Assembly: GCA_035362335.1 (NCBI GenBank)
Contig: DAOSDL010000005.1
Coordinates: 12,708-76,707 of the forward strand
Direction of reading: 5' to 3'
DNA length: 64,000 nucleotides
Source of the DNA: Bacteroidota bacterium
GTDB lineage: Bacteria; Bacteroidota; Ignavibacteria; SZUA-365
Below the pieces are notes generated by a model, which was not told the DNA's origin, did not search any database, and saw only the letters and a program-made list of their open reading frames with translations. A program made the position numbers and the translations under genes. The stretch's first letter is position 1. Each line of letters opens with the position of its first letter. Shown here in pieces: positions 1,733 to 49,056 of this stretch.

Positions 1733-3031
1733 TTACACGGCGCTATCGCGCCAGAAGGTGTGAAAGGCGTCCGCCAGGCGCCACACATCCTCGAAGGTGT
1801 TGTACATCGGTACCGGTGCGGCGCGTATCACATCGGGCTCGCGCCAGTCGCAGACAATGCCCTGCCGGTGCAGATGGTCGAAGCAGGCGCGGCCGCGTTC
1901 GTGCAGGCGGATGGAAAGCTGGCATCCCCGCTGTTCCGGATCGGCGGGTGTGATAATCGACCAGGTGTCGCGCTGCCCGGCGCGCAGGAGTTGTTCGAGC
2001 CAGCCGGTGAGGCGCAGGCTTTTCGCGCGCAGCGCGGGCATGCCCGCTTCCTCGAACAGCGCCAGCGAAGCGCGCAACGCGGCCATGGGCAGCACGGCCG
2101 GATTACTCAACTGCCACCCGTCGGCGCCCGGGGCGGGCATGAATTGCCGTGGCATGGCAAAACGCGTGGCGGGGTCGTGCCCCCACCAGCCGCTGAAGCG
2201 GGGGAGGTCCGGCGCATGCTCATGCCGCGCGTGCACGAAACATGCGGCTGTGCCGCCGGGGCCGGAGTTGAGGTATTTGTACGAACACCACACCGCGAAG
2301 TCCGCATTCCATTCGTGCAGGTGCAGGGGAACATTGCCCGCCGCATGGGCCAGATCGAGGCCGGCCACCATACCTGCCGCATGCGCCGCGTCGATCAGAG
2401 CGGGAATGTCGAACAACTGTCCGTTGTAATAATTCACACCGCCCAGCAACAGCATCGCCGCCTCGTCGCGATACAGATGGATGAGGTCCAGCGCACGCTG
2501 CCTGTCGAAGAGTCCATCCTCGCTGAGGGGAAGCTCGATCAGATCGTGCTCCGGATCGCAGCCGTGAAAGCGCAACTGCGACATCACCGCGTATTGGTCG
2601 GAGGGAAAGGCCTTTTCCTCGATGATGATTTTCCGCCGGCGGCCTTCGGGACGGTAGAAGGAAACGAGCAGCAAATGCAGATTCACCGTCAACGTGTTCA
2701 TCGCCACCACCTCCGAGGGCAGCGCGCCCACAATGCGCGCCAGCGGTGCGGCGACCTCCTCGTGCGTGCGCATCCACGGATGCGGGCCGTCGAAATGTCC
2801 GTCCACGGCCAGGCGCGCCCAGGTGTCGAGCTCGGTGAGAAGCTCAGCTTCGGTTGCCCGGGGTTGCAGGCCGAGAGAGTTGCCGCTGAAATAGGCGATC
2901 TCGCGTCCCTCCGCATCCAGCGGAACGTGGAAGCGCGGACGAAGCGTGGGAAAGGCGTCGCCGTGGTCGAGCATGCGGGCGTGTTCGAGCGTGGCGGTCG
3001 CGTGCGATGAATACGTGGGCGGTGCTGTCAT
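1733..3031 (-). CDS. kynU: Kynureninase (PLP-dependent)
   Basis: The track ORF 1733..3844 carries a spurious N-terminal extension. The real start is MTAPPTYSS at 3031, preceded by a GGAG ribosome-binding site. Kynureninase-like motifs are present, including SYKYLNSGPGG. The start overlaps the upstream gene stop as ATGA (3028-3031). Confidence 0.88.
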   Translation of the reverse strand: MTAPPTYSSHATATLEHARMLDHGDAFPTLRPRFHVPLDAEGREIAYFSGNSLGLQPRATEAELLTELDTWARLAVDGHFDGPHPWMRTHEEVAAPLARIVGALPSEVVAMNTLTVNLHLLLVSFYRPEGRRRKIIIEEKAFPSDQYAVMSQLRFHGCDPEHDLIELPLSEDGLFDRQRALDLIHLYRDEAAMLLLGGVNYYNGQLFDIPALIDAAHAAGMVAGLDLAHAAGNVPLHLHEWNADFAVWCSYKYLNSGPGGTAACFVHARHEHAPDLPRFSGWWGHDPATRFAMPRQFMPAPGADGWQLSNPAVLPMAALRASLALFEEAGMPALRAKSLRLTGWLEQLLRAGQRDTWSIITPADPEQRGCQLSIRLHERGRACFDHLHRQGIVCDWREPDVIRAAPVPMYNTFEDVWRLADAFHTFWRDSAV

Positions 3032-3849
3032 TGCTCCGGAGAAATGGGGTAGAGAATCGGACGGCTGGGTGTCGCATCGGAGACGAACGCGGCAATCTGC
3101 AAGTTGAGCAAATAACGGCCATCCGGTACATGATCCGGAATATAGACCATTTCCGTGATGGTGCGAAGCCGGGGCGCGCCAACGGCGACGCGCTGCTGAC
3201 CGACGGGCATTTGCCAGAACGCGTGATGCGCGAGCATCTCGCCGCCATCGTCGTCGCGGTCCAGCGATGGCACATCCACCAGCAGATGGCGCACGTCGCG
3301 TTCGACAAGGCATTGCACCGCCTCCACAGTGAAATACGGTGCGCGTTGCCGCGTGTAATGGCGCGTGCGCTTGCTCTCGGGATTGGGCAGCGTGCGAATG
3401 ATCACGGCCTGGCCGAAGGAAATGTCCTGCGACTCCAGCGCGTGCCGCAACGCGGTGGCCGTGATCAGCGTGTCGTCGGATGTGGCGTTGTGCGCGGCGC
3501 TTTCGTGCGAGGCGGCGGCGGGCACCAGCACGGCGCTGACGAGTGTCGCCGGAATGAGCGAGCCAGGCAACACATCGGTGACGGGGATGCGCTCGACGGT
3601 GAGATGCCCGACGCATTCGGTGTGCGTGCCGTTGCAATGCGGCGTGAGAACGAGGGTTTCGACGTTGCAGCTCCCGCCGAGACGGGTGTCGCCCACGAGC
3701 GATCCCGCGCGCAACGCCTCGGCATGCGCGTCCGCAACACCGTAGGCGTTGGGTTGCGCGCCGTGGAAGTCGAGCGGGATGGCGATGCTGATGCCGGCAT
3801 CGAGGTCGGCATCGAATCGCGCCTGGCCGATGGTGATGGTGCAAATCAT
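3028..3849 (-). CDS. Cyclase-family protein, putative kynurenine formamidase (divergent KynB-like)
   Basis: 273 aa. Cyclase-family hallmarks are TPHCNGTHTECVGH (a variant of HxGTHxDxPxH), LLVDVPSLDRDDDG, and a C-terminal PDGRYLLNLQ region. ATGA overlaps at both ends (3846-3849 and 3028-3031). Lies inside the kynurenine operon. Confidence 0.6.
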   Translation of the reverse strand: MICTITIGQARFDADLDAGISIAIPLDFHGAQPNAYGVADAHAEALRAGSLVGDTRLGGSCNVETLVLTPHCNGTHTECVGHLTVERIPVTDVLPGSLIPATLVSAVLVPAAASHESAAHNATSDDTLITATALRHALESQDISFGQAVIIRTLPNPESKRTRHYTRQRAPYFTVEAVQCLVERDVRHLLVDVPSLDRDDDGGEMLAHHAFWQMPVGQQRVAVGAPRLRTITEMVYIPDHVPDGRYLLNLQIAAFVSDATPSRPILYPISPEQ

Positions 3850-4862
3850 CGGATAAAACGCTCCTTGGTTAAGCCGAGCCAGTGGAGGGCGTTCTCGCCA
3901 AGCAACTTTTGCTTGACGGTGTTCGGAAGTTCATCCATGGATTCGATCAATGCGCCCGGAATGGCCTCGCCCAGAGGGAAGGGATAGTCCGAGCCGAGGG
4001 TGACGCGGTCTTCGCCCACGAGATCGATGATGTAGCGCAACATCACCGCGTCGTGCACGAGCGAATCGAGCCAGAAGCGCCCGAGGTAGGCGCGCGGCTG
4101 CACGGGGTTGTCGATGGCCACCAGGTCGGGCCGCACGTTGAAGCCGTGCTCAATGCGCCCGAGTGTTGCGGGGAAGGAGCCGCCGCCATGCGCGAAATTC
4201 ACGCGCAGACGGGGCAGGCGCTCGAGCACGCCGCCGAAAATCATCGAGCAAATCGCGAGCGAGGTTTCGGCCGGCATGGCCACCAGCCAGGGCAGCCAGT
4301 AGCGCTGCATGCGGTCGCGCCCCATCATGTCCCAGGGATGCACAAACACAGCGGCGCCCAGTTCCTGCGCCGCTTCGAAAAAGGGAAACAGTGCGGGTTC
4401 GTTGAGATTCCAGTCGTTGACATGCGTGCCGATTTCCACACCGGCCAGGCCGAGTTCCTTCACCGCGCGTTCGAGTTCGCGAATGGCGAGCGCGGGATCC
4501 TGCAAGGGCACGGTGCCGAGTCCCACGAAGCGCTGTGGATGCCCCGCCACCGTGGCCGCGATGTGATCGTTGAGATAGCGGGACAGATCATGACCGTGCT
4601 CGGGCTTGGCCCAGTAGCTGAACATCACGGGCACGGTGGACAACACCTGCACGTGTACTCCATGCGTGTCGCATTCGCCGATGCGCACGGCGGGATCCCA
4701 GGAATTCGGATGAAAGGTGCGGAAATGCTTGCAGTCCACGAACATGTCGGCCGCACCGTCGTCGCGCCGCTGCAACGCGGGGAAGCCGCCATACCCGTAG
4801 CGCTCGGCCAGATCGGGCCAGGACGGCGGGAGTATGTGAGTGTGTACGTCGACTTTCAGCAT
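3846..4862 (-). CDS. 2-amino-3-carboxymuconate-6-semialdehyde decarboxylase (ACMSD, amidohydrolase-2 family)
   Basis: 338 aa. Long stretches match ACMSD as I recall it from metazoan/Pseudomonas enzymes: MLKVDVHTHILPPSWPDL, STVPVMFSYWAKPE, YWLPWLVAMPAETSLAICSMIFGGV, FAHGGGSFP, LGSDYPFPLGE. Ribosome-binding site TGAGGA upstream of the ATG at 4862. Confidence 0.9.
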   Translation of the reverse strand: MLKVDVHTHILPPSWPDLAERYGYGGFPALQRRDDGAADMFVDCKHFRTFHPNSWDPAVRIGECDTHGVHVQVLSTVPVMFSYWAKPEHGHDLSRYLNDHIAATVAGHPQRFVGLGTVPLQDPALAIRELERAVKELGLAGVEIGTHVNDWNLNEPALFPFFEAAQELGAAVFVHPWDMMGRDRMQRYWLPWLVAMPAETSLAICSMIFGGVLERLPRLRVNFAHGGGSFPATLGRIEHGFNVRPDLVAIDNPVQPRAYLGRFWLDSLVHDAVMLRYIIDLVGEDRVTLGSDYPFPLGEAIPGALIESMDELPNTVKQKLLGENALHWLGLTKERFIR

Positions 4863-4937
4863 GCGTCCTCAGGTACTCGTTACAGGCGTGCGGGGAGTGC
4901 TTGGAAACGGGACCGGGCGGATGGCCGCGGCGAGCCC

Positions 4938-5462
4938 TCAGCGCGCGGGCACGGGCGCTTCCATCACCGCGCCGCATTGGCTGCAACGGCGCAGTTGTTC
5001 GGAGCCATAAAAACGCTCCATGATGGGTGGAAACTGCGTGACGATGTTTTCCAGCGTGAAATACTCCTCGTGCAACGGAGCATTGCATTGCTCGCAAAAC
5101 CAGAGAAATCCGTCCTGTTCACCCTCGCGGCGCTTGCGTTCGATTACCAGGCCCACGGTATTGGCCGGCCGTTGCGGCGAATGCGGCACGCGGGCGGGGA
5201 GGAGGAAGATCTCGCCCGGCCGCAGCTTCACCGCGCGACGCTCGCCATCCACGATGAGATGCAGCGTGATCTCGCCTTCGATTTGATAGAAAAACTCCTC
5301 GCCCTCGTTGTAATGGTAGTCCTTGCGGGCGTTGGGTCCGCCCACAATCATGACGATGAACTCCGCATTCTCGAACACCTGCAAGTTGCCCACCGGGGGT
5401 TTGAGCAAGTGGCGGTGTTCTTCTATCCATTGTTGAAGGTTGATGCCCTGTGATGTATACAT
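4938..5462 (-). CDS. 3-hydroxyanthranilate 3,4-dioxygenase (cupin)
   Basis: 174 aa. The cupin core (PNARKDYHYNEGEEFFYQIEGEITLHL) and the C-terminal Cys-rich rubredoxin-like segment (CEQC...CSQCG) are typical of HAAO/NbaC. Confidence 0.88.
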   Translation of the reverse strand: MYTSQGINLQQWIEEHRHLLKPPVGNLQVFENAEFIVMIVGGPNARKDYHYNEGEEFFYQIEGEITLHLIVDGERRAVKLRPGEIFLLPARVPHSPQRPANTVGLVIERKRREGEQDGFLWFCEQCNAPLHEEYFTLENIVTQFPPIMERFYGSEQLRRCSQCGAVMEAPVPAR

Positions 5463-5472
5463 GCGAACCTCG

Positions 5473-5886
5473 TCAAATCGTGGCGATACATTTCAACTCG
5501 ATGGCGATGGGGGTGGGGAGCGAGAGCACCTCCACGGTGGTGCGGCAGGGCCGGTTGTCCCGGAAATACTCCGCGTACACGCGGTTGAAGGTGGCGAAAT
5601 CCTTTTTCATGTCGGTGAGGAACACCGTCACATCCACAAGATTTTCCCAGGCCGCGCCGGCGTCCTCCAGCACGGCGCGCACATTGCGGAACACGCTGTG
5701 GCATTGCCGCTCGAAATCGTAGCTGATGACGCGGCCGTCCGCATCCACTTCCACGCCGGGCACGTCGTCGACGCCGCGTTCGCGCGGACCGATGCCCGAG
5801 AGAAACAGCAGATTGCCCACGCGACGCGCGTGCGGGTACAGGCCCACGGGCTCGGGAGCGGAGGAGGAGTGGATTTCCTCGTTCAT
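5473..5886 (-). CDS. RidA/YjgF-family protein, likely 2-aminomuconate deaminase
   Basis: RidA fold motifs are present (FLSGIGP, TVFLTDM, VEVLSLP). The ATG at 5886 overlaps the upstream ALDH stop as ATGA (5883-5886). The track start at 5910 is a GTG that lies upstream of this. Confidence 0.72.
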   Translation of the reverse strand: MNEEIHSSSAPEPVGLYPHARRVGNLLFLSGIGPRERGVDDVPGVEVDADGRVISYDFERQCHSVFRNVRAVLEDAGAAWENLVDVTVFLTDMKKDFATFNRVYAEYFRDNRPCRTTVEVLSLPTPIAIELKCIATI

Positions 5887-7397
5887 GGCGATGTTCCCAG
5901 ATGGATGCACACGTTGGTGGGTTCGGTGAAAAAGCGCAGCGCTTCCCAGCCGCCTTCGCGTCCGATGCCGCTCTGCTTCACGCCGCCGAAGGGCGTACGC
6001 AAATCACGCAGCATCCAGCAATTCACCCACACGATGCCCGCCTCCAGCGCGCCGGCAACGCGATGGGCGCGGAGCAGATCGCGCGTCCACAGCGACGCGG
6101 CGAGTCCGTAGGGCGTGGAGTTGGCGATGGCCAGCGCCTCTTCCTCGCTGTCGAAGGGCAGCAGCGTGACCACGGGACCGAAGATCTCTTCCTGATTCGT
6201 GCGGCACTGCGCCGACAGGCCGTCGATCACGGCGGGCGTGAGGAAGGCGCCACCGGCACAGCGGCCATCGGGCACGATGCGCTCACCGCCGCACAGCACC
6301 GTGCCACCCTCCTCGCGGGCAAGCTGCACATAGCTCAGGACTTTGTGGAGATGTTCCTCCGAAACCAAGGCGCCGATGCGCGTGTCGGGGTCCAGGGGAT
6401 CGCCCACACGCAGAGCGCGCACCTCGTCCACGAAGCGCGCGCGGAAGCGGTCGTACAAGCCGCGTTGCACGAGGATGCGCGAACCGCAAAGGCAGATTTC
6501 GCCCTGATTCGAGAAGGCCGAGCGCACGATGGTGGGCAGGATATCCTCCAGATCCACATCGTCGAAGACGATGGTGGGATTCTTGCCTCCCAGCTCCAGC
6601 GAGAGCTTTTTGAACATCGGCGCCGCCGTCGCGGCGATGGAGGCGCCGGTGCGCGTGCCGCCGGTAAAGGAAATAGCCGGCACATCCGGATGCGCGCAGA
6701 GGGGAGCGCCGACGTCCGCGCCGCGTCCATGCACGATGTTGAGCACGCCGGCGGGCAATCCGGCCTCGATGCACAGCTCCGCGAAGCGACCGGCGGTGAG
6801 CGGCGTCAATTCCGAGGGCTTGGCCACAACGCAACTGCCGGCGGCCAGCGCCGGGGCGATTTTCCAGGTGAAGAGGTACAGCGGCAGATTCCATGGTGAA
6901 ATGCAGGCCGCCACGGGTATGGGACGACGCAGCGTGTAGTTCAACGCCAGCGTATCGCTATGATGCGCCTCGTCGTGGTCGTGGAGAATGGCGGTGGCAA
7001 AAAATCGCAGATTGCGGGCCGCGCGCGGAATGTCCACCGTGCGCGCGAGCGTGAGCGGCTTGCCGTTGTCGCGCGATTCCAGCGCGGCGAGTTCTTCCAG
7101 ATGTTCTTCGACCAGGGTGGCGAGGCGCAGCAACAGCCGCGAACGCTGTTCCGCCGGTGTCGTGGCCCAGTGCCGTGCCTGTTGCGCCGCGCGGACGGCG
7201 GCGTCCACATCGCGGGCGTCGGATGCGGCCGCCATGGCGATGGTCGCGCCCGTCGCCGGCTCCAGCACGGGCAGCCAGTCGCCGCCTTCCGGATCCACCA
7301 ATGCGCCGCCGATGTAATTGCGAATGTAGTGCATGTCGTGCATCATGCGGACGCTTTCGCGACTGCGTTGCGCGCCGCCTGCTTTCTTTTGTGTCAT
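5883..7397 (-). CDS. NAD-dependent aldehyde dehydrogenase, likely 2-aminomuconate-6-semialdehyde dehydrogenase
   Basis: 504 aa. ALDH motifs present: ELGGKNP, FSNQGEICLCGSRILV, FGGVKQSGIGREGG. It is the first gene of the kynurenine operon. The N-terminus is uncertain (ATG at 7397 with no RBS, or an internal MM at about 7346). Confidence 0.85.
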   Translation of the reverse strand: MTQKKAGGAQRSRESVRMMHDMHYIRNYIGGALVDPEGGDWLPVLEPATGATIAMAAASDARDVDAAVRAAQQARHWATTPAEQRSRLLLRLATLVEEHLEELAALESRDNGKPLTLARTVDIPRAARNLRFFATAILHDHDEAHHSDTLALNYTLRRPIPVAACISPWNLPLYLFTWKIAPALAAGSCVVAKPSELTPLTAGRFAELCIEAGLPAGVLNIVHGRGADVGAPLCAHPDVPAISFTGGTRTGASIAATAAPMFKKLSLELGGKNPTIVFDDVDLEDILPTIVRSAFSNQGEICLCGSRILVQRGLYDRFRARFVDEVRALRVGDPLDPDTRIGALVSEEHLHKVLSYVQLAREEGGTVLCGGERIVPDGRCAGGAFLTPAVIDGLSAQCRTNQEEIFGPVVTLLPFDSEEEALAIANSTPYGLAASLWTRDLLRAHRVAGALEAGIVWVNCWMLRDLRTPFGGVKQSGIGREGGWEALRFFTEPTNVCIHLGTSP

Positions 7398-7600
7398 GAG
7401 AAATGAACAATCTCAAAATACACGACATGGCGAAAATCGCAAGCGTACGGGACGGATGAGGTCGCGGCATGTACTTCGCGATGCTACGGACTCCGTGGAG
7501 ATTGAATTCAAGCTCAAAACCACAGTCATTCATGTTCCTTCGTCACACCCGGGAGAATGAAAATGGTGCGGAGATTGGATTATTCGGATTCGACACGGTT

Positions 7601-8071
7601 TTAAAACCACGGATTTCGCAGATTATCCACAGATTAGCACAGATTATTCGTGGAAGTCCACAAGGATCCGAGCAGTAGCCGCAAGGAAAGCAATCCAACA
7701 CCTGTTGTCGAAAGTGACGCGAAACACGCGTACATTGCCTGCTGGGACAGCGGTGGTGCGGGTTGACTCCCGGCTACTACCGTCAAACTTTACTCTTTAC
7801 TCTTCACTCTTTACTCATCACCGCGCAGAAGCGCATGATGCAGGCAGCGACACTATTTTCAGAGCAGATTGCACGGATTGCACACAGATTAGCATAGATT
7901 ATTCGTGGAAGTCGGCGAGGTGCCGGGCGAATCGTCGCAGATGAAGCGATCAGACGCCCGCTGACAGCAGTGATGCGAATCGGCGTTTATTGCCTGCGGT
8001 GCCGGCGGGAGTACGGGTTGGCTCCTGCGACTACCGTCAAACTTTACTCTTTACTCTTCACTCTTTACTCA
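7601..8071. repeat. Imperfect tandem duplication (2 x about 215-245 bp) in a 700-bp ORF-free, AT-richer spacer
   Basis: Copy 1 is about 7601-7817 and copy 2 about 7861-8071. They share a near-identical head (cagattagcaYagattattcgtggaagtc) and an identical 41-bp tail (ctaccgtcaaactttactctttactcttcactctttactca). The tail on the other strand reads as four GAGTRAA heptads. An exact TTATCCACA sits at 7623-7631. Confidence 0.6.
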
Positions 8072-8109
8072 ACGCATCACTGCGCAACCGACATGCCGAT
8101 GCGGCAGGG

Positions 8110-8562
8110 TCACGAAATGAAGCGGATGCTCAGCGGGTAGCGATAGGCCTCGCCGCGGTAGCTGCGCACGGACGCCACGATGACGAGGACGAGATTGGTG
8201 ATGCCGAGCGCGATCATCAGCAACAGCGAGAGACCGGCCGTGACCCCGAGTCCGAACACGCTCTCCTGCACGGCTGCCGACAGCATGCCGGTGACAAACA
8301 CCACCATCAGCACGATGAAGTAGATGGTCATGCTGATCTGGAAATTCATGGATTCCTTGCCCTGATCGTTCACCAGCGGCATCTCATCCTTTTTCATCAA
8401 CCACACGGTGAGCGGACCGAAAATGTGACCGAAGGGAACGATCACCGATGCGAATGTGGACAGGTGGCAGAGCATGCCCCAGGTGTGGATTTGATCTTCG
8501 CGCATGCGTGCCAACTGTGCGGCGACATCCTGCGTCGCTTGTTCCTGCGTGCCGTCGTTCAT
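8110..8562 (-). CDS. Small membrane protein (DUF4870-like)
   Basis: 150 aa with about 3-4 hydrophobic helices. ATG at 8562. Confidence 0.55.
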   Translation of the reverse strand: MNDGTQEQATQDVAAQLARMREDQIHTWGMLCHLSTFASVIVPFGHIFGPLTVWLMKKDEMPLVNDQGKESMNFQISMTIYFIVLMVVFVTGMLSAAVQESVFGLGVTAGLSLLLMIALGITNLVLVIVASVRSYRGEAYRYPLSIRFIS

Positions 8563-8635
8563 GTCGATCTCCTTGTGCTATGTGAATTGCTGCCGCTTCC
8601 GAGCGTCAGTGCGGTCGAAGCGCCCGCGTGCATCG

Positions 8636-9379
8636 TCACGTTGCCACAGCATCGCTGTTCGCCATCACGTCAATCCAGGAGCGCACAATGGCCTCGAGTC
8701 CGTCCCGCCGTGGCAGTCCATCCGCGTCATTCAATCGTGTGATGTCGCCGTTGCGCAGCAGCTGCCGCACGCCCTCGACATTGGCCCAATAGTAGAATCC
8801 CCACTGTTCGAGACTCCAACGCGGATCATAGCCATTGACTTCGTAGTCAACATAGGTGAGCGCGCCATTGTGTACAACCATGTTCGCCGGAAACCAGTCG
8901 AGATTGTAGCCCGCTTCGCGGCAACGCCGCGAAAGGGAGAGCAGTTGGAGGATGATGTCACGCTCCGGAAGGCCGTCGGCCACGAGCCGCAGGCCGTCGA
9001 TGCCATCCACCCATTCCTTGAGCAGCGTGCCCCGCTCGTGATCCACATGCAGCAGACGCGGAAGCGGCACGCCGATGCGGAGCAAGGTTGCGTAATCGCG
9101 CTGCTCGGCAATGGTTTTTGCTTCATGAAAGGTGTAATACGGGCAGGGTTCGTCGTGCATGACTTTGAGCACGAAGCGGGCGCCGCCTTCCTCCACCAGC
9201 CAGGAAAGCGCGGATTTGCCCTTACCGAGCGCGCGCAGGAGTGTGAGTCGATGCGGGCCGCAGGAGAGTGTCATGCCGGCCGCGCATGCATCGGCCACAT
9301 TGTATTCCGGAGAAGGGGAGGGTGTTTCCTGCGCTGCGTCGCTCATGGCATTCAGGGAATGTGTATGTTGGGTGTACAT
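8636..9379 (-). CDS. Small protein-kinase-like-fold protein (Kdo/RIO/LPS-kinase-like, atypical)
   Basis: 247 aa. Gly-rich loop LGKGKSA, then VLKV (lysine), LLKEWVDG hinge, a catalytic-loop-like DWFPANMVV (D...N) and a DFG-like YVDYE. An alternative start is MSDAAQ at about 9346. Confidence 0.5.
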   Translation of the reverse strand: MYTQHTHSLNAMSDAAQETPSPSPEYNVADACAAGMTLSCGPHRLTLLRALGKGKSALSWLVEEGGARFVLKVMHDEPCPYYTFHEAKTIAEQRDYATLLRIGVPLPRLLHVDHERGTLLKEWVDGIDGLRLVADGLPERDIILQLLSLSRRCREAGYNLDWFPANMVVHNGALTYVDYEVNGYDPRWSLEQWGFYYWANVEGVRQLLRNGDITRLNDADGLPRRDGLEAIVRSWIDVMANSDAVAT

Positions 9380-9634
9380 CGGGCGACCGGGAGAGGGCCG
9401 AGGATTGTTTCGCTTCGTGCTATCGGTGGCCCGAATCTGTCACCGGGCAGAGTACGGGGGGAGTTGGACATGGTTGCGCGAAGGATTTTCATAAACTCTT
9501 TGAAATGAAACATTGATGCGCTATATTTACTTGCTCTGAATGGCACAACCACATTCAGTGCGGCGTACATTGTCCCGATTCGGATTACACACGGAAGTTA
9601 CACAGAAAATACAGGTTCATCGGAGCACAGAAGC

Positions 9635-21257: not shown

Positions 21258-21601
21258 TGAATGCTTGAGAACAACATGCGTCCCGAGTGGAAAGTTTCAC
21301 AGTTCTTCCGTGAAAATGGTATGGGTGCGATGATGTGCAACGGAGCGGATTTGACAGAGGGGGAAAACCACAGATAGCACGGATTTCACACGGATTTTCA
21401 CAGATGAATCGGAGAAGGGTGCGCGGGCAGCGGTTACTTTTCACCATTTTTCCTTTTGCCTCGTGATTGCGTGGTAGCATCGCGGCATCGCGATTATCCA
21501 AACCGGCGGGGCCCATTATCCACGGGGACTTCGTATATTAGTACATCCACGCCTTTTTATCGCGCGGATATCACGAAGTACTCATCGAAACAGAGATCAG
21601 C

Positions 21602-48875: not shown

Positions 48876-49056
48876 ACAATTCCTCCTTACCCTCCTTTCC
48901 TCCTTACTCTCATTCTTCACTGTATTACACGATCACGCTCACCCCACCACACTGAATCGGCGCACGGATCACTCCTCGTCTGATAAAAATCCCGTTTCTT
49001 TCGCAACGCTGCGGATAATATATTCCGGTATCTTGTTCCATTCCCGGAGAAGTAGC

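Follow-up and report, generated by a model that had tools for sequence, protein, structure and literature searches.

The window, meaning the whole stretch of 64,000 nucleotides analysed here, comes from a Bacteroidota bacterium (contig DAOSDL010000005.1). It carries the genes DUF3857-rpsD-236aa-MamF-ALDH, in the same order as in a sister MAG. Some of its spacers hold arrays of a short word, CACRGAT(T). A preliminary description of this DNA claimed such arrays at four sites, and reading the sequence recovers the words it quoted at 7575-7665, 7865-7912 and 21371-21415. Three of the sites hold up as arrays (7603-7656, 7868-7911 and 21364-21417). The remaining one, at 9578-9594, is a 17-nt look-alike. 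The coordinates of all features are given in Table 1.

Table 1. Features of the ALDH-MamF spacer, the rpsD 5'UTR and site 3, in window coordinates
Feature	Position	Strand	Description
X0	7516..7525	+	AAAACCACAG; end of the resident leader and left junction; alignment to the sister genome ends here on this side (BLAST, L062)
342-nt unit	7526..7867	+	In the window, not in the sister-MAG spacer; flanked CAG/CAG
T module	7526..7571	+	Short CU-rich stretch and hairpin TTCATGTTCC..GGGAGAATGAA; conserved in about 10 MAG copies
Pre-core P1	7572..7602	+	Degenerate GATT units (GGATTATTCGGATTCGACACGGTTTT)
Core 1	7603..7656	+	AAAACCACGGATTTCGCAGATTATCCACAGATTAGCACAGATTATTCGTGGAAG; four phased units plus TCGTGGAAG; profile 73 bits
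Class A body 1	7657..7783	+	GC-rich; weak + strand-biased folding; stem GTAGCCG/CGGCTAC
C1 heptad tract	7784..7817	+	Pyrimidine; CTTTACT x 4.1
H1 hairpin	7818..7844	+	CATCA-CC-GCGC-AGAA-GCGC-A-TGATG; no U-run after it; no terminator call; variants in other copies
P2/X2	7845..7867	+	Degenerate pre-core ending GCAG; right end of the inserted unit
Resident array R2	7868..7911	+	ATTGCACGGATTGCACACAGATTAGCATAGATTATTCGTGGAAG; orthologue of the sister-MAG solo array; shares the unusual GATTGCACACAG spacer
Body 2 to unit end	7912..8080	+	Class A body 2 at 7912-8037; heptad tract C2 at 8038-8071; about 10 nt here in the sister MAG
Site 4	9578..9594	+	ATTCGGATTACACACGG; 17-nt pre-core look-alike inside the rpsD 5'UTR; neither array nor inserted copy
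Site 3 leader	21291..21363	+	X0-like GTTTCACAG; T-like module at 21303-21341; pre-core GGAGCGGATTTGACAGAGGGGG at 21342-21363
Core 3	21364..21417	+	AAAACCACAGATAGCACGGATTTCACACGGATTTTCACAGATGAATCGGAGAAG; profile 65.1 bits; orthologous place kept in two related MAGs
Site 3 CU-rich tract	21434..21462	+	TTACTTTTCACCATTTTTCCTTTTGCCTC; precedes the citE promoter/5'UTR, a separate feature with 100% conservation

Both strands of the window were searched for chains of [ACT]RGAT with a spacing of 9-11 nt, against 200 Markov shuffles. Three chains of four units appear, all on the + strand (7610-7647, 7865-7902 and 21371-21408). Chains of at least four units occur in the shuffles at a mean of 0.005 per shuffle. 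The octamer CACRGATT is present 9 times against 4.2 expected, with 7 of the 9 inside the three clusters, and the bare hexamer ACRGAT is not enriched (50 observed, 55.6 expected). TRF independently calls a 10-nt period at 7619-7647. Each array consists of four CACRGAT(T) units on the + strand with a spacing of 9/11/10 bp. The core profile finds only three strong copies in the window, the one at R2 scoring 57.8 bits. A DnaA-box reading was rejected after inspecting the aligned copies. More precisely, TTATCCACA occurs only at 7623-7631, in one unit of one copy, and is a coincidence.

Site 4 scores at noise level with the core profile (E = 1). Against the pre-core of copy 1 (7582-7598), 15 of its 15 specified bases match, with 0.00 expected, and ATTCGGATTNNACACGG is common to the two. 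The rpsD promoter, TTTG-N19-TATATTTAC, lies upstream of this site and is conserved in four lineages. The site is nearly unchanged in length with respect to distant relatives. Site 4 is not a family member.

Architecture and distribution of the repeat

The aligned copies identify the arrays as the invariant 54-nt core of a modular, non-coding, multi-copy interspersed repeat. Its modules follow the order leader, array, variable body, CTTTACT heptad tract and hairpin. The core pattern is AAAACCAC.GAT..CAC.GATT...CAC.GATT..CACAGAT.A.TCGTGGAAG. The consensus of 45 non-redundant copies, aligned free of gaps, reads AAAACCAC[R]GATTg CACAGATTtca CAC[R]GATTag CACAGATnAn TCGTGGAAG. Over these copies, the CAC.GAT positions hold about 1.8-2 bits each, while information is low at R and at the spacer positions. 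A and G replace each other at R, and this is the sole substitution tolerated within the units. The array has four units in 44 of the 45 copies and six in one, and the 9/11/10 spacing is present in all of them. The only dyad in the core, CCACAGAT/ATTCGTGG, is imperfect, and its changes in window site 3, L012 and L019 are uncompensated.

On the + strand, a full unit consists of a degenerate-GATT pre-core, AAAACCACAG, the four CACRGAT(T) units, TCGTGGAAG, the body, (CTTTACT)n and the hairpin. The pre-core is looser than the core (GGATynrACAnrG....). Further upstream, many copies carry a T module, in which AAAACCACAG is followed directly by TCTTTCATGTTCC..GGGAGAATGAAAATGGTGC. From its sequence, this module looks like a unit with the array and the body deleted. 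The body ranges from 0 to 130 nt. We distinguish 35 different class A copies, 5 of class B and about 28 others. Similarity downstream of the core fades over about 25 nt past GAAG, even across body classes. In class A, the pyrimidine tract consists of CTTTACT repeated 3-5 times, followed by the hairpin.

The modules (P, X, array, body classes, C, H and T) combine variably, so the copies are mosaics. Unit sizes go from 80 to 350 nt, and both the number and the frame of the heptads vary between copies. Arrays 1 and 2 of the window each head a tandem copy, of about 255 nt each, of the longer unit. One locus (L022) presents tandem T modules, and another (L067) has AATCGTA heptads. Most copies are solo, with head-to-head core pairs at a few loci (L051, L054, L018 and L021/L044). 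A composite HMM matches site 3 over 21311-21425. At the ends of the 342-nt unit and of site 3 there are no terminal inverted repeats, only internal imperfect ones of 11-15 nt. The small ORFs of the T module and the heptad tract were discarded as genes, their frame and start codon varying between copies. The repeat also causes spurious ORF calls in the window, for example at 7705-7944 and 7990-8742.

We scanned one genome per species (185,579 species) with the columns shared by the three window arrays. The core pattern gave 19 matches, all in one MAG, Bacteroidota bacterium RA_AS_metabat.63 (JAMIQH01). A three-unit pattern found 37 metagenome loci. Counting the window and the loci already mentioned, the core profile gave 94 hits, frequently paired on one strand at a distance of about 260 nt. 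Some 90 copies are thus known beyond the window. They are confined to one sister MAG and to related contigs from metagenomes, at a density of roughly one per tens of kb. Among 2.9 million viral contigs, two patterns had 0 matches. Rfam 15 gave 0 gathering-score matches in the window, and at a permissive threshold only noise (E > 5) in 7350-8200. A literature search for the motif as a string found no match. About 39 kb sampled from relatives with 75-77% protein identity (in ALDH or citE) lacks the core, and the spacers of these relatives are short at both the ALDH and the citE loci. The family is therefore young and narrow.

The preliminary description had proposed a dispersed miniature repeat as one of its two readings, placed in promoter-proximal spacers of unrelated genes. 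The repeat itself is borne out: 54 nt, spacers included, are conserved in 45 copies at many intergenic sites, with gain and loss of units. Enrichment in intergenic DNA is likewise confirmed (78 of 83 copies, 94%). The promoter-proximal position holds for the sites of the window and fails for the family. Of the genes downstream of the 83 copies, 31 are co-oriented and 37 convergent, at distances from -24 to 1627 nt; of those upstream, 43 are co-oriented and 27 divergent. Enrichment upstream of genes is thus not seen, as neither orientation nor distance shows a preference. The neighbours are indeed unrelated housekeeping genes: the 138 flanking proteins are spread over 224 Pfam families, with no family seen more than three times. 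The only recurring neighbours are paralogous large secreted proteins and orthologues. No transposase recurs among the 138 genes within 2.5 kb of copies, and none of these genes represents a cognate autonomous element or a transposase whose ends match those of the repeat. These orientation counts and the Pfam diversity argue that the arrays are not operators of their neighbours and that no mobilising gene travels with them. With chromosomal housekeeping neighbours and no viral matches, the context differs from that of plasmid or phage iterons or par sites.

Orthologous loci and constraint on the core

Homologues of ALDH led to the orthologous locus in the sister MAG (L062) and in a JGI contig identical to it (L063), and homologues of citE to the loci orthologous to site 3. 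A further set of MAG loci shows no synteny with the window. Window and sister MAG are 93% identical in nucleotides over 9.4 kb, and the BLAST alignments end exactly at window positions 7525 and 8081. Between these ends the window has 555 nt and the MAG 56 nt, a difference of 499 nt. In the sister MAG, the MamF-ALDH spacer measures 208 nt and contains one solo element, formed by the pre-core, AAAACCACAG, four units and TCGTGGAAATCTGCGGGGAAG, and then the flank.

The 342-nt unit sits exactly between AAAACCACAG and ATTGCAC. It comprises a T module, a pre-core, array 1, a body, heptads, a hairpin and a degenerate pre-core. We take array 2 of the window as the resident orthologue, because it shares its unusual spacer with the MAG array. 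CAG precedes the insert and also ends it. These are 3 nt within a repeated motif and could be mere homology. As terminal inverted repeats are absent and a target-site duplication is not clear, the spread could be due to gene conversion or unequal recombination instead of transposition. The outgroups are without the element altogether, so the difference at ALDH-MamF cannot be polarised as insertion or deletion.

The segment 7516-7867 (352 nt, the unit plus X0) is 99.1-100% identical between the window and L037, L049, L057 and L048. These four loci represent at least three unrelated left flanks (L037, L049 and L057), since L048 overlaps a second locus of the L049 contig. By comparison, the MAG orthologue of L057 (L015) is only 89.9% identical to it. 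Either the unit spread recently or the paralogues were homogenised by gene conversion. Taken together, the alignments show copies duplicated and spread to many unrelated intergenic sites in one narrow Bacteroidota lineage. They also show copies remodelled by recombination between their own modules. For instance, L057 and L015 differ by the collapse of two tandem units into one at the heptad tracts, and the L022/L053 pair differs by loss of the array.

Other orthologous pairs keep their cores, while pre-core and body are replaceable (L018/L036), and the bodies evolve faster than the core. We compared the differences in seven orthologous pairs. They affect 4 of 164 sites at the 24 CAC.GAT positions of the core (2.4%) against 30 of 204 at the other core positions (14.7%; Fisher p = 4e-5), so that substitution is six-fold lower at CAC.GAT. 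Site 3, whose orthologue occurs at the corresponding position in two related MAGs, follows this pattern with 0 of 24 changes at CAC.GAT and 9 of 30 in the rest of the core, next to a citE promoter/5'UTR that is 100% identical. The contrast between units and spacers could partly reflect conversion from paralogues that differ only at the spacers. Still, the family-wide invariance of the CAC.GAT positions needs selection somewhere.

Possible roles of the array, the body and the pyrimidine tract

The best explanation, to which we give reasonable confidence, is a lineage-specific repeat with an array core that spread between genes and is kept as the platform of one protein. A phasing of one turn suggests that the array is recognised on one face of duplex DNA. 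The four phased units probably form a cooperative binding platform for one putative protein, a reading indirectly supported by the fixed helical phasing and the reduced substitution at CAC.GAT. It corresponds to the other proposal of the preliminary description, binding-site arrays for one DNA-binding protein, and is compatible with the dispersed repeat. One sequence-specific protein would bind the four units cooperatively on one face of the DNA, and the units would be kept for this reason. The protein could be a recombinase or transposase that propagates the element. Alternatively, it could be a host regulator or architectural protein that co-opts it. More tentatively, the body and the CU tract would be transcribed in the + direction.

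Several observations bear on this last step. A tract with at least 82% pyrimidines lies downstream in 13 of 37 copies, against 7% of background windows, and the other strand is without it. Its distance ranges from 13 to 203 nt, mostly about 70-130 nt. In class A bodies, the + strand is the more stable in 21 of 22 (mean -45.7 against -40.3 kcal/mol), with weak folding z-scores (mean -1.1). RNAalifold returns a poor consensus (-7.5 kcal/mol, two compensatory pairs) in which only the central hairpin is supported. Half of the copies rely on G-U pairs in this hairpin, which would be mismatches on the other strand. Covariation over the whole body does not separate the strands, as the predicted structure of each favours itself. 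Only the G-U pairs of the central hairpin and the asymmetry in folding energy favour the + strand. The folding of class A hints at a role as RNA, beyond an explanation purely at the level of DNA. Transcription of the body and the CU tract in the + direction is then possible, judging from composition and folding. It cannot explain the retention of the core, because solo cores without a body exist.

The same observations could belong to a family of sRNA genes, an alternative that we consider doubtful. The array would then serve as an upstream site of activation, for instance by a response regulator of the OmpR/PhoB or LytTR type. A non-sigma-A promoter would lie near TCGTGGAAG, followed by the body, a CU heptad 'seed' resembling an anti-Shine-Dalgarno sequence and a hairpin end, and the repeat would amount to a regulon of sRNAs. 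The fixed order of array, body, CU tract and hairpin agrees with this, as do the strand-specific pyrimidine tract, the stabler + strand of class A and the central hairpin kept through G-U pairs. The gradual decay of similarity past GAAG, across body classes, fits as well. In addition, the downstream gene is convergent for half of the copies, which would suit independent small transcription units. Nevertheless, the + strand of the unit has no Bacteroidota-type -33/-7 promoter, and the unit contains neither a sigma-70-like promoter nor an intrinsic terminator. The core was also examined as a sigma-54, sigma-70 or Bacteroidota -33/-7 promoter and gave no acceptable match. The sister MAG has solo cores without body or CU tract, and for some cores the distance to a convergent gene is only 28-50 nt. 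The weak z-scores, the poor consensus structure, the lack of an Rfam match and the faster evolution of the body than of the core between orthologues also speak against sRNA genes. Finally, unlinked copies with 99-100% identity would be unusual for sRNA paralogues.

The repeat could also be a mobile cis-regulatory cassette. It would spread a four-site operator for one regulator along with a small RNA gene with CU heptads, and about a hundred intergenic sites of the lineage would form one regulon. The cassette would grow as new units enter existing arrays exactly at CACAG|ATT, and would in this way target itself. We judge this combination unlikely. Two mobile-element models were also compared with the repeat. 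An element like IS200/IS605, with subterminal hairpins and insertion 3' of CACAG, is not supported, the left and right hairpins being unrelated and TnpA/TnpB not being nearby. The ends of Helitron/IS91 elements have no match.

The array could also act in RNA. Placed in the UTRs of neighbouring mRNAs or at a transcript's 5' end, CACRGAUU repeats would dock a multimeric protein that binds RNA, or would base-pair with an RNA of complementary sequence. The A-G exchange at R would preserve pairing with U, and the T module of site 3 is 87% complementary over 15 nt to array units 3-4. The association with the CU tract is strand-specific. In other bacteria, moreover, a post-transcriptional role has been proposed for intergenic direct-repeat arrays of heptamers (PMC4679880). 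We find this reading improbable. The copies take both orientations relative to the flanking genes, so that many would be antisense or untranscribed, and the promoter is not found on the unit. Furthermore, the complementary stretch is not conserved from copy to copy, and the 9/11/10 spacing of one turn is a feature of a DNA face.

Operator arrays for one transcription factor controlling the ALDH/kynurenine operon, citrate lyase and rpsD are very improbable and already largely refuted. The window sites do lie upstream of ALDH, citE and rpsD, and the conserved place of array 3 in two related MAGs would suit an operator. Against this, the family shows no preference for upstream or co-oriented positions, its neighbours are functionally unrelated, and the conserved promoters of citE and rpsD themselves lie at other places in the spacer. 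The same genes have no upstream arrays in the relatives at 75-77% identity. The 54-nt cores, near-identical down to their spacers, indicate copying and not convergent evolution of sites. A short word clustering by chance, or slippage in simple sequence, would agree with the unenriched hexamer but is refuted by four-unit chains 600-fold above expectation and by the identical architecture of about 90 homologous copies elsewhere.

Relation to known repeats and significance

By analogy, the repeat is one of the bacterial interspersed repeats, belongs to no named family and would be previously undescribed. Its closest analogue appears to be BrickBuilt, and then elements of the BIME/BOX kind. BrickBuilt is a species-specific MITE of Porphyromonas gingivalis, always intergenic, with tens of copies made of a leader, tandem direct repeats and a tail (PMC4596501). 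Its bricks measure 23 nt and number 1-22.8, its terminal inverted repeats are small, and leader-only and tail-only forms exist (PMC4596501). The present repeat occurs in the same phylum. It is likewise restricted to a lineage, lies in intergenic DNA beside unrelated genes, shows leader, repeats and tail, and has partial forms. It differs in units of 9-11 nt fixed at four (44 of 45 copies), in having no terminal inverted repeats and in the extra CTTTACT tract. This separation is by the published description of BrickBuilt. As for MITEs in general, the repeat resembles them in being small, non-coding and multi-copy and in its presence/absence differences, and departs from them in its ends, which are without terminal inverted repeats.

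The REP/BIME repeats of enterobacteria and BOX of Streptococcus pneumoniae are mosaic repeats of intergenic DNA that reach about 100 copies or more in a genome. They lie in either orientation, recombine and encode no protein. IHF and gyrase are among the host proteins known to bind BIMEs, and the modules of REP and BOX are palindromic hairpins. Our repeat is also a mosaic of few module types in intergenic DNA. However, its core is a direct-repeat array without a palindromic hairpin unit, and a gene of the RAYT type is not seen near the copies.

Helically phased direct repeats are known as operators. Examples are the PhoB/OmpR boxes, the LytTR sites (AgrA ACAGTTAAG), the parC iterons of ParR and the BldC repeats. 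Such operators occur at a few loci, at defined promoters or centromeres, and their sequences are degenerate from one locus to the next. The array shares with them the head-to-tail repeats, 7-9 conserved bases, centres about 10-11 bp apart (about 21 bp for the pairs 1+3 and 2+4) and free spacers. Within it, ACAGATTAG matches at 8 of 9 positions what we take to be the LytTR 9-mer consensus. In contrast to these operators, 54 nt are here copied near-verbatim to about 100 intergenic places regardless of gene orientation. The TAACTGA heptamer repeats of Beggiatoaceae, Cyanobacteria and some Bacteroidetes occupy many intergenic regions with no evident mobilising mechanism, just upstream of start codons (PMC4679880). 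The CTTTACT tract and the AATCGTA heptads of L067 are similar to them in form. Here, unlike in those arrays, the repeats are embedded in a longer conserved element.

Many bacteria have interspersed intergenic repeats, and almost all of them are hairpins (REP, BOX, ERIC) or have inverted ends (MITEs). What sets this one apart is a core of four direct repeats in helical phase, in which the spacers drift and the putative recognition positions are retained. It has no inverted ends and no transposase nearby, and it presents a clean filled and unfilled site between genomes that are 93% identical. On the practical side, the element breaks short-read assemblies of these digester-type Bacteroidota and yields spurious ORF calls; such assemblies of the species of the window itself terminate within the repeat. 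Should the binding protein be a recombinase, a non-autonomous element would have a new means of spreading and of nesting within itself. If the protein is a regulator, the repeat would distribute operator arrays, and perhaps small RNAs, throughout the genome.

Gene context of the repeat

The repeat lies beside the first gene (ALDH) of an operon whose products match the families RidA (Ribonuc_L-PSP), 3-hydroxyanthranilate dioxygenase, amidohydrolase, cyclase and kynureninase. This operon is a tryptophan/kynurenine-type degradation cluster. In some sources, the ALDH is named 2-aminomuconate/2-hydroxymuconate semialdehyde dehydrogenase. Three long ORFs span repeat units and the strand antisense to the ALDH. 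With near certainty, these are gene-calling artefacts, because their reading frames are not conserved between repeat copies.

The rpsD gene has a promoter of the Bacteroidota -33/-7 type (TTTG-N19-TATATTTAC). It is kept in the window, the sister MAG locus (L062) and two comparison loci (L065 and L066), lineages with 75-97% protein identity. The 5'UTR parts CTGAATGG and AATACAGGTTC..CGGAGCA are likewise kept across them. The variable part of the leader is the segment containing the 17-nt look-alike of the pre-core.

Coordinates of the features described
Feature	Locus	Position
ALDH operon (- strand)	window	1898-7397
Long ORFs	window	7705-7944, 7990-8742, 6958-7533
rpsD promoter	window	9499-9534
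Weak match to heptad tract	window	48894-48909
Six-unit array	L053	10037-10136
Core with inverted heptad tract (- strand)	L042	5560-5780
Head-to-head pair	L051	8618-8747
Head-to-head pair	L054	8524-8605
Head-to-head pair	L018	21-313
Head-to-head pairs	L021, L044	
Tandem heptads	L067	2817-2912
Assembly ends (L001/L005, L002/L003, L004)	window	7730, 7825, 8044

Variation in number and orientation

One array (L053) has six core units, not four. The additional units come from a 21-nt duplication covering two units, the sole copy-number variant among 45 non-redundant copies. In L042, the purine-rich GTAAAGAGTGAAGAGTGAAGAGTAAAG comes after a core, and ~60 nt further on comes its complement, CTTTACTCTTTACCCTTCACTCTTCACTC. 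Here the heptad tract is duplicated in inverted orientation and could fold into a long hairpin. At a minority of loci there are head-to-head pairs, consisting of two cores or of a core and an inverted AAAACCACAGAT. These pairs yield MITE-like palindromes of 80-300 nt.

In a distant relative (GCA_029980345.1), the spacer 5' of the citE orthologue holds an array unlike that of the core. It consists of ~13.7 tandem heptads (AATCGTA/TCGTCAA/TCGTACC). On its 5' side lies GATTTTCACACAGACAAATCG, similar to the 3' half of the window's core. A search with the core profile gave no match to the heptad array, which may be a divergent sister family. Elsewhere in the window, CCTTTCCTCCTTACTC resembles the CU heptad tract weakly, with 3 mismatches, and has no core in its vicinity.

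Assembly breaks at the repeat

One contig (L033, Ga0208462_1000076) links the flanks of two other loci, L057 and L058, via the repeat. Identity to them on the two sides is 99.8% and 100%. This junction arose either by chimeric assembly or by genuine recombination between two repeat copies. Three sister MAG contigs (L016, L018 and L010) are fragments of a single region, unbroken in L036. Likewise, the independent short-read assemblies of the window's species (L001 to L005) all stop within the tandem repeat. The repeat thus fragments the MAGs of this lineage.
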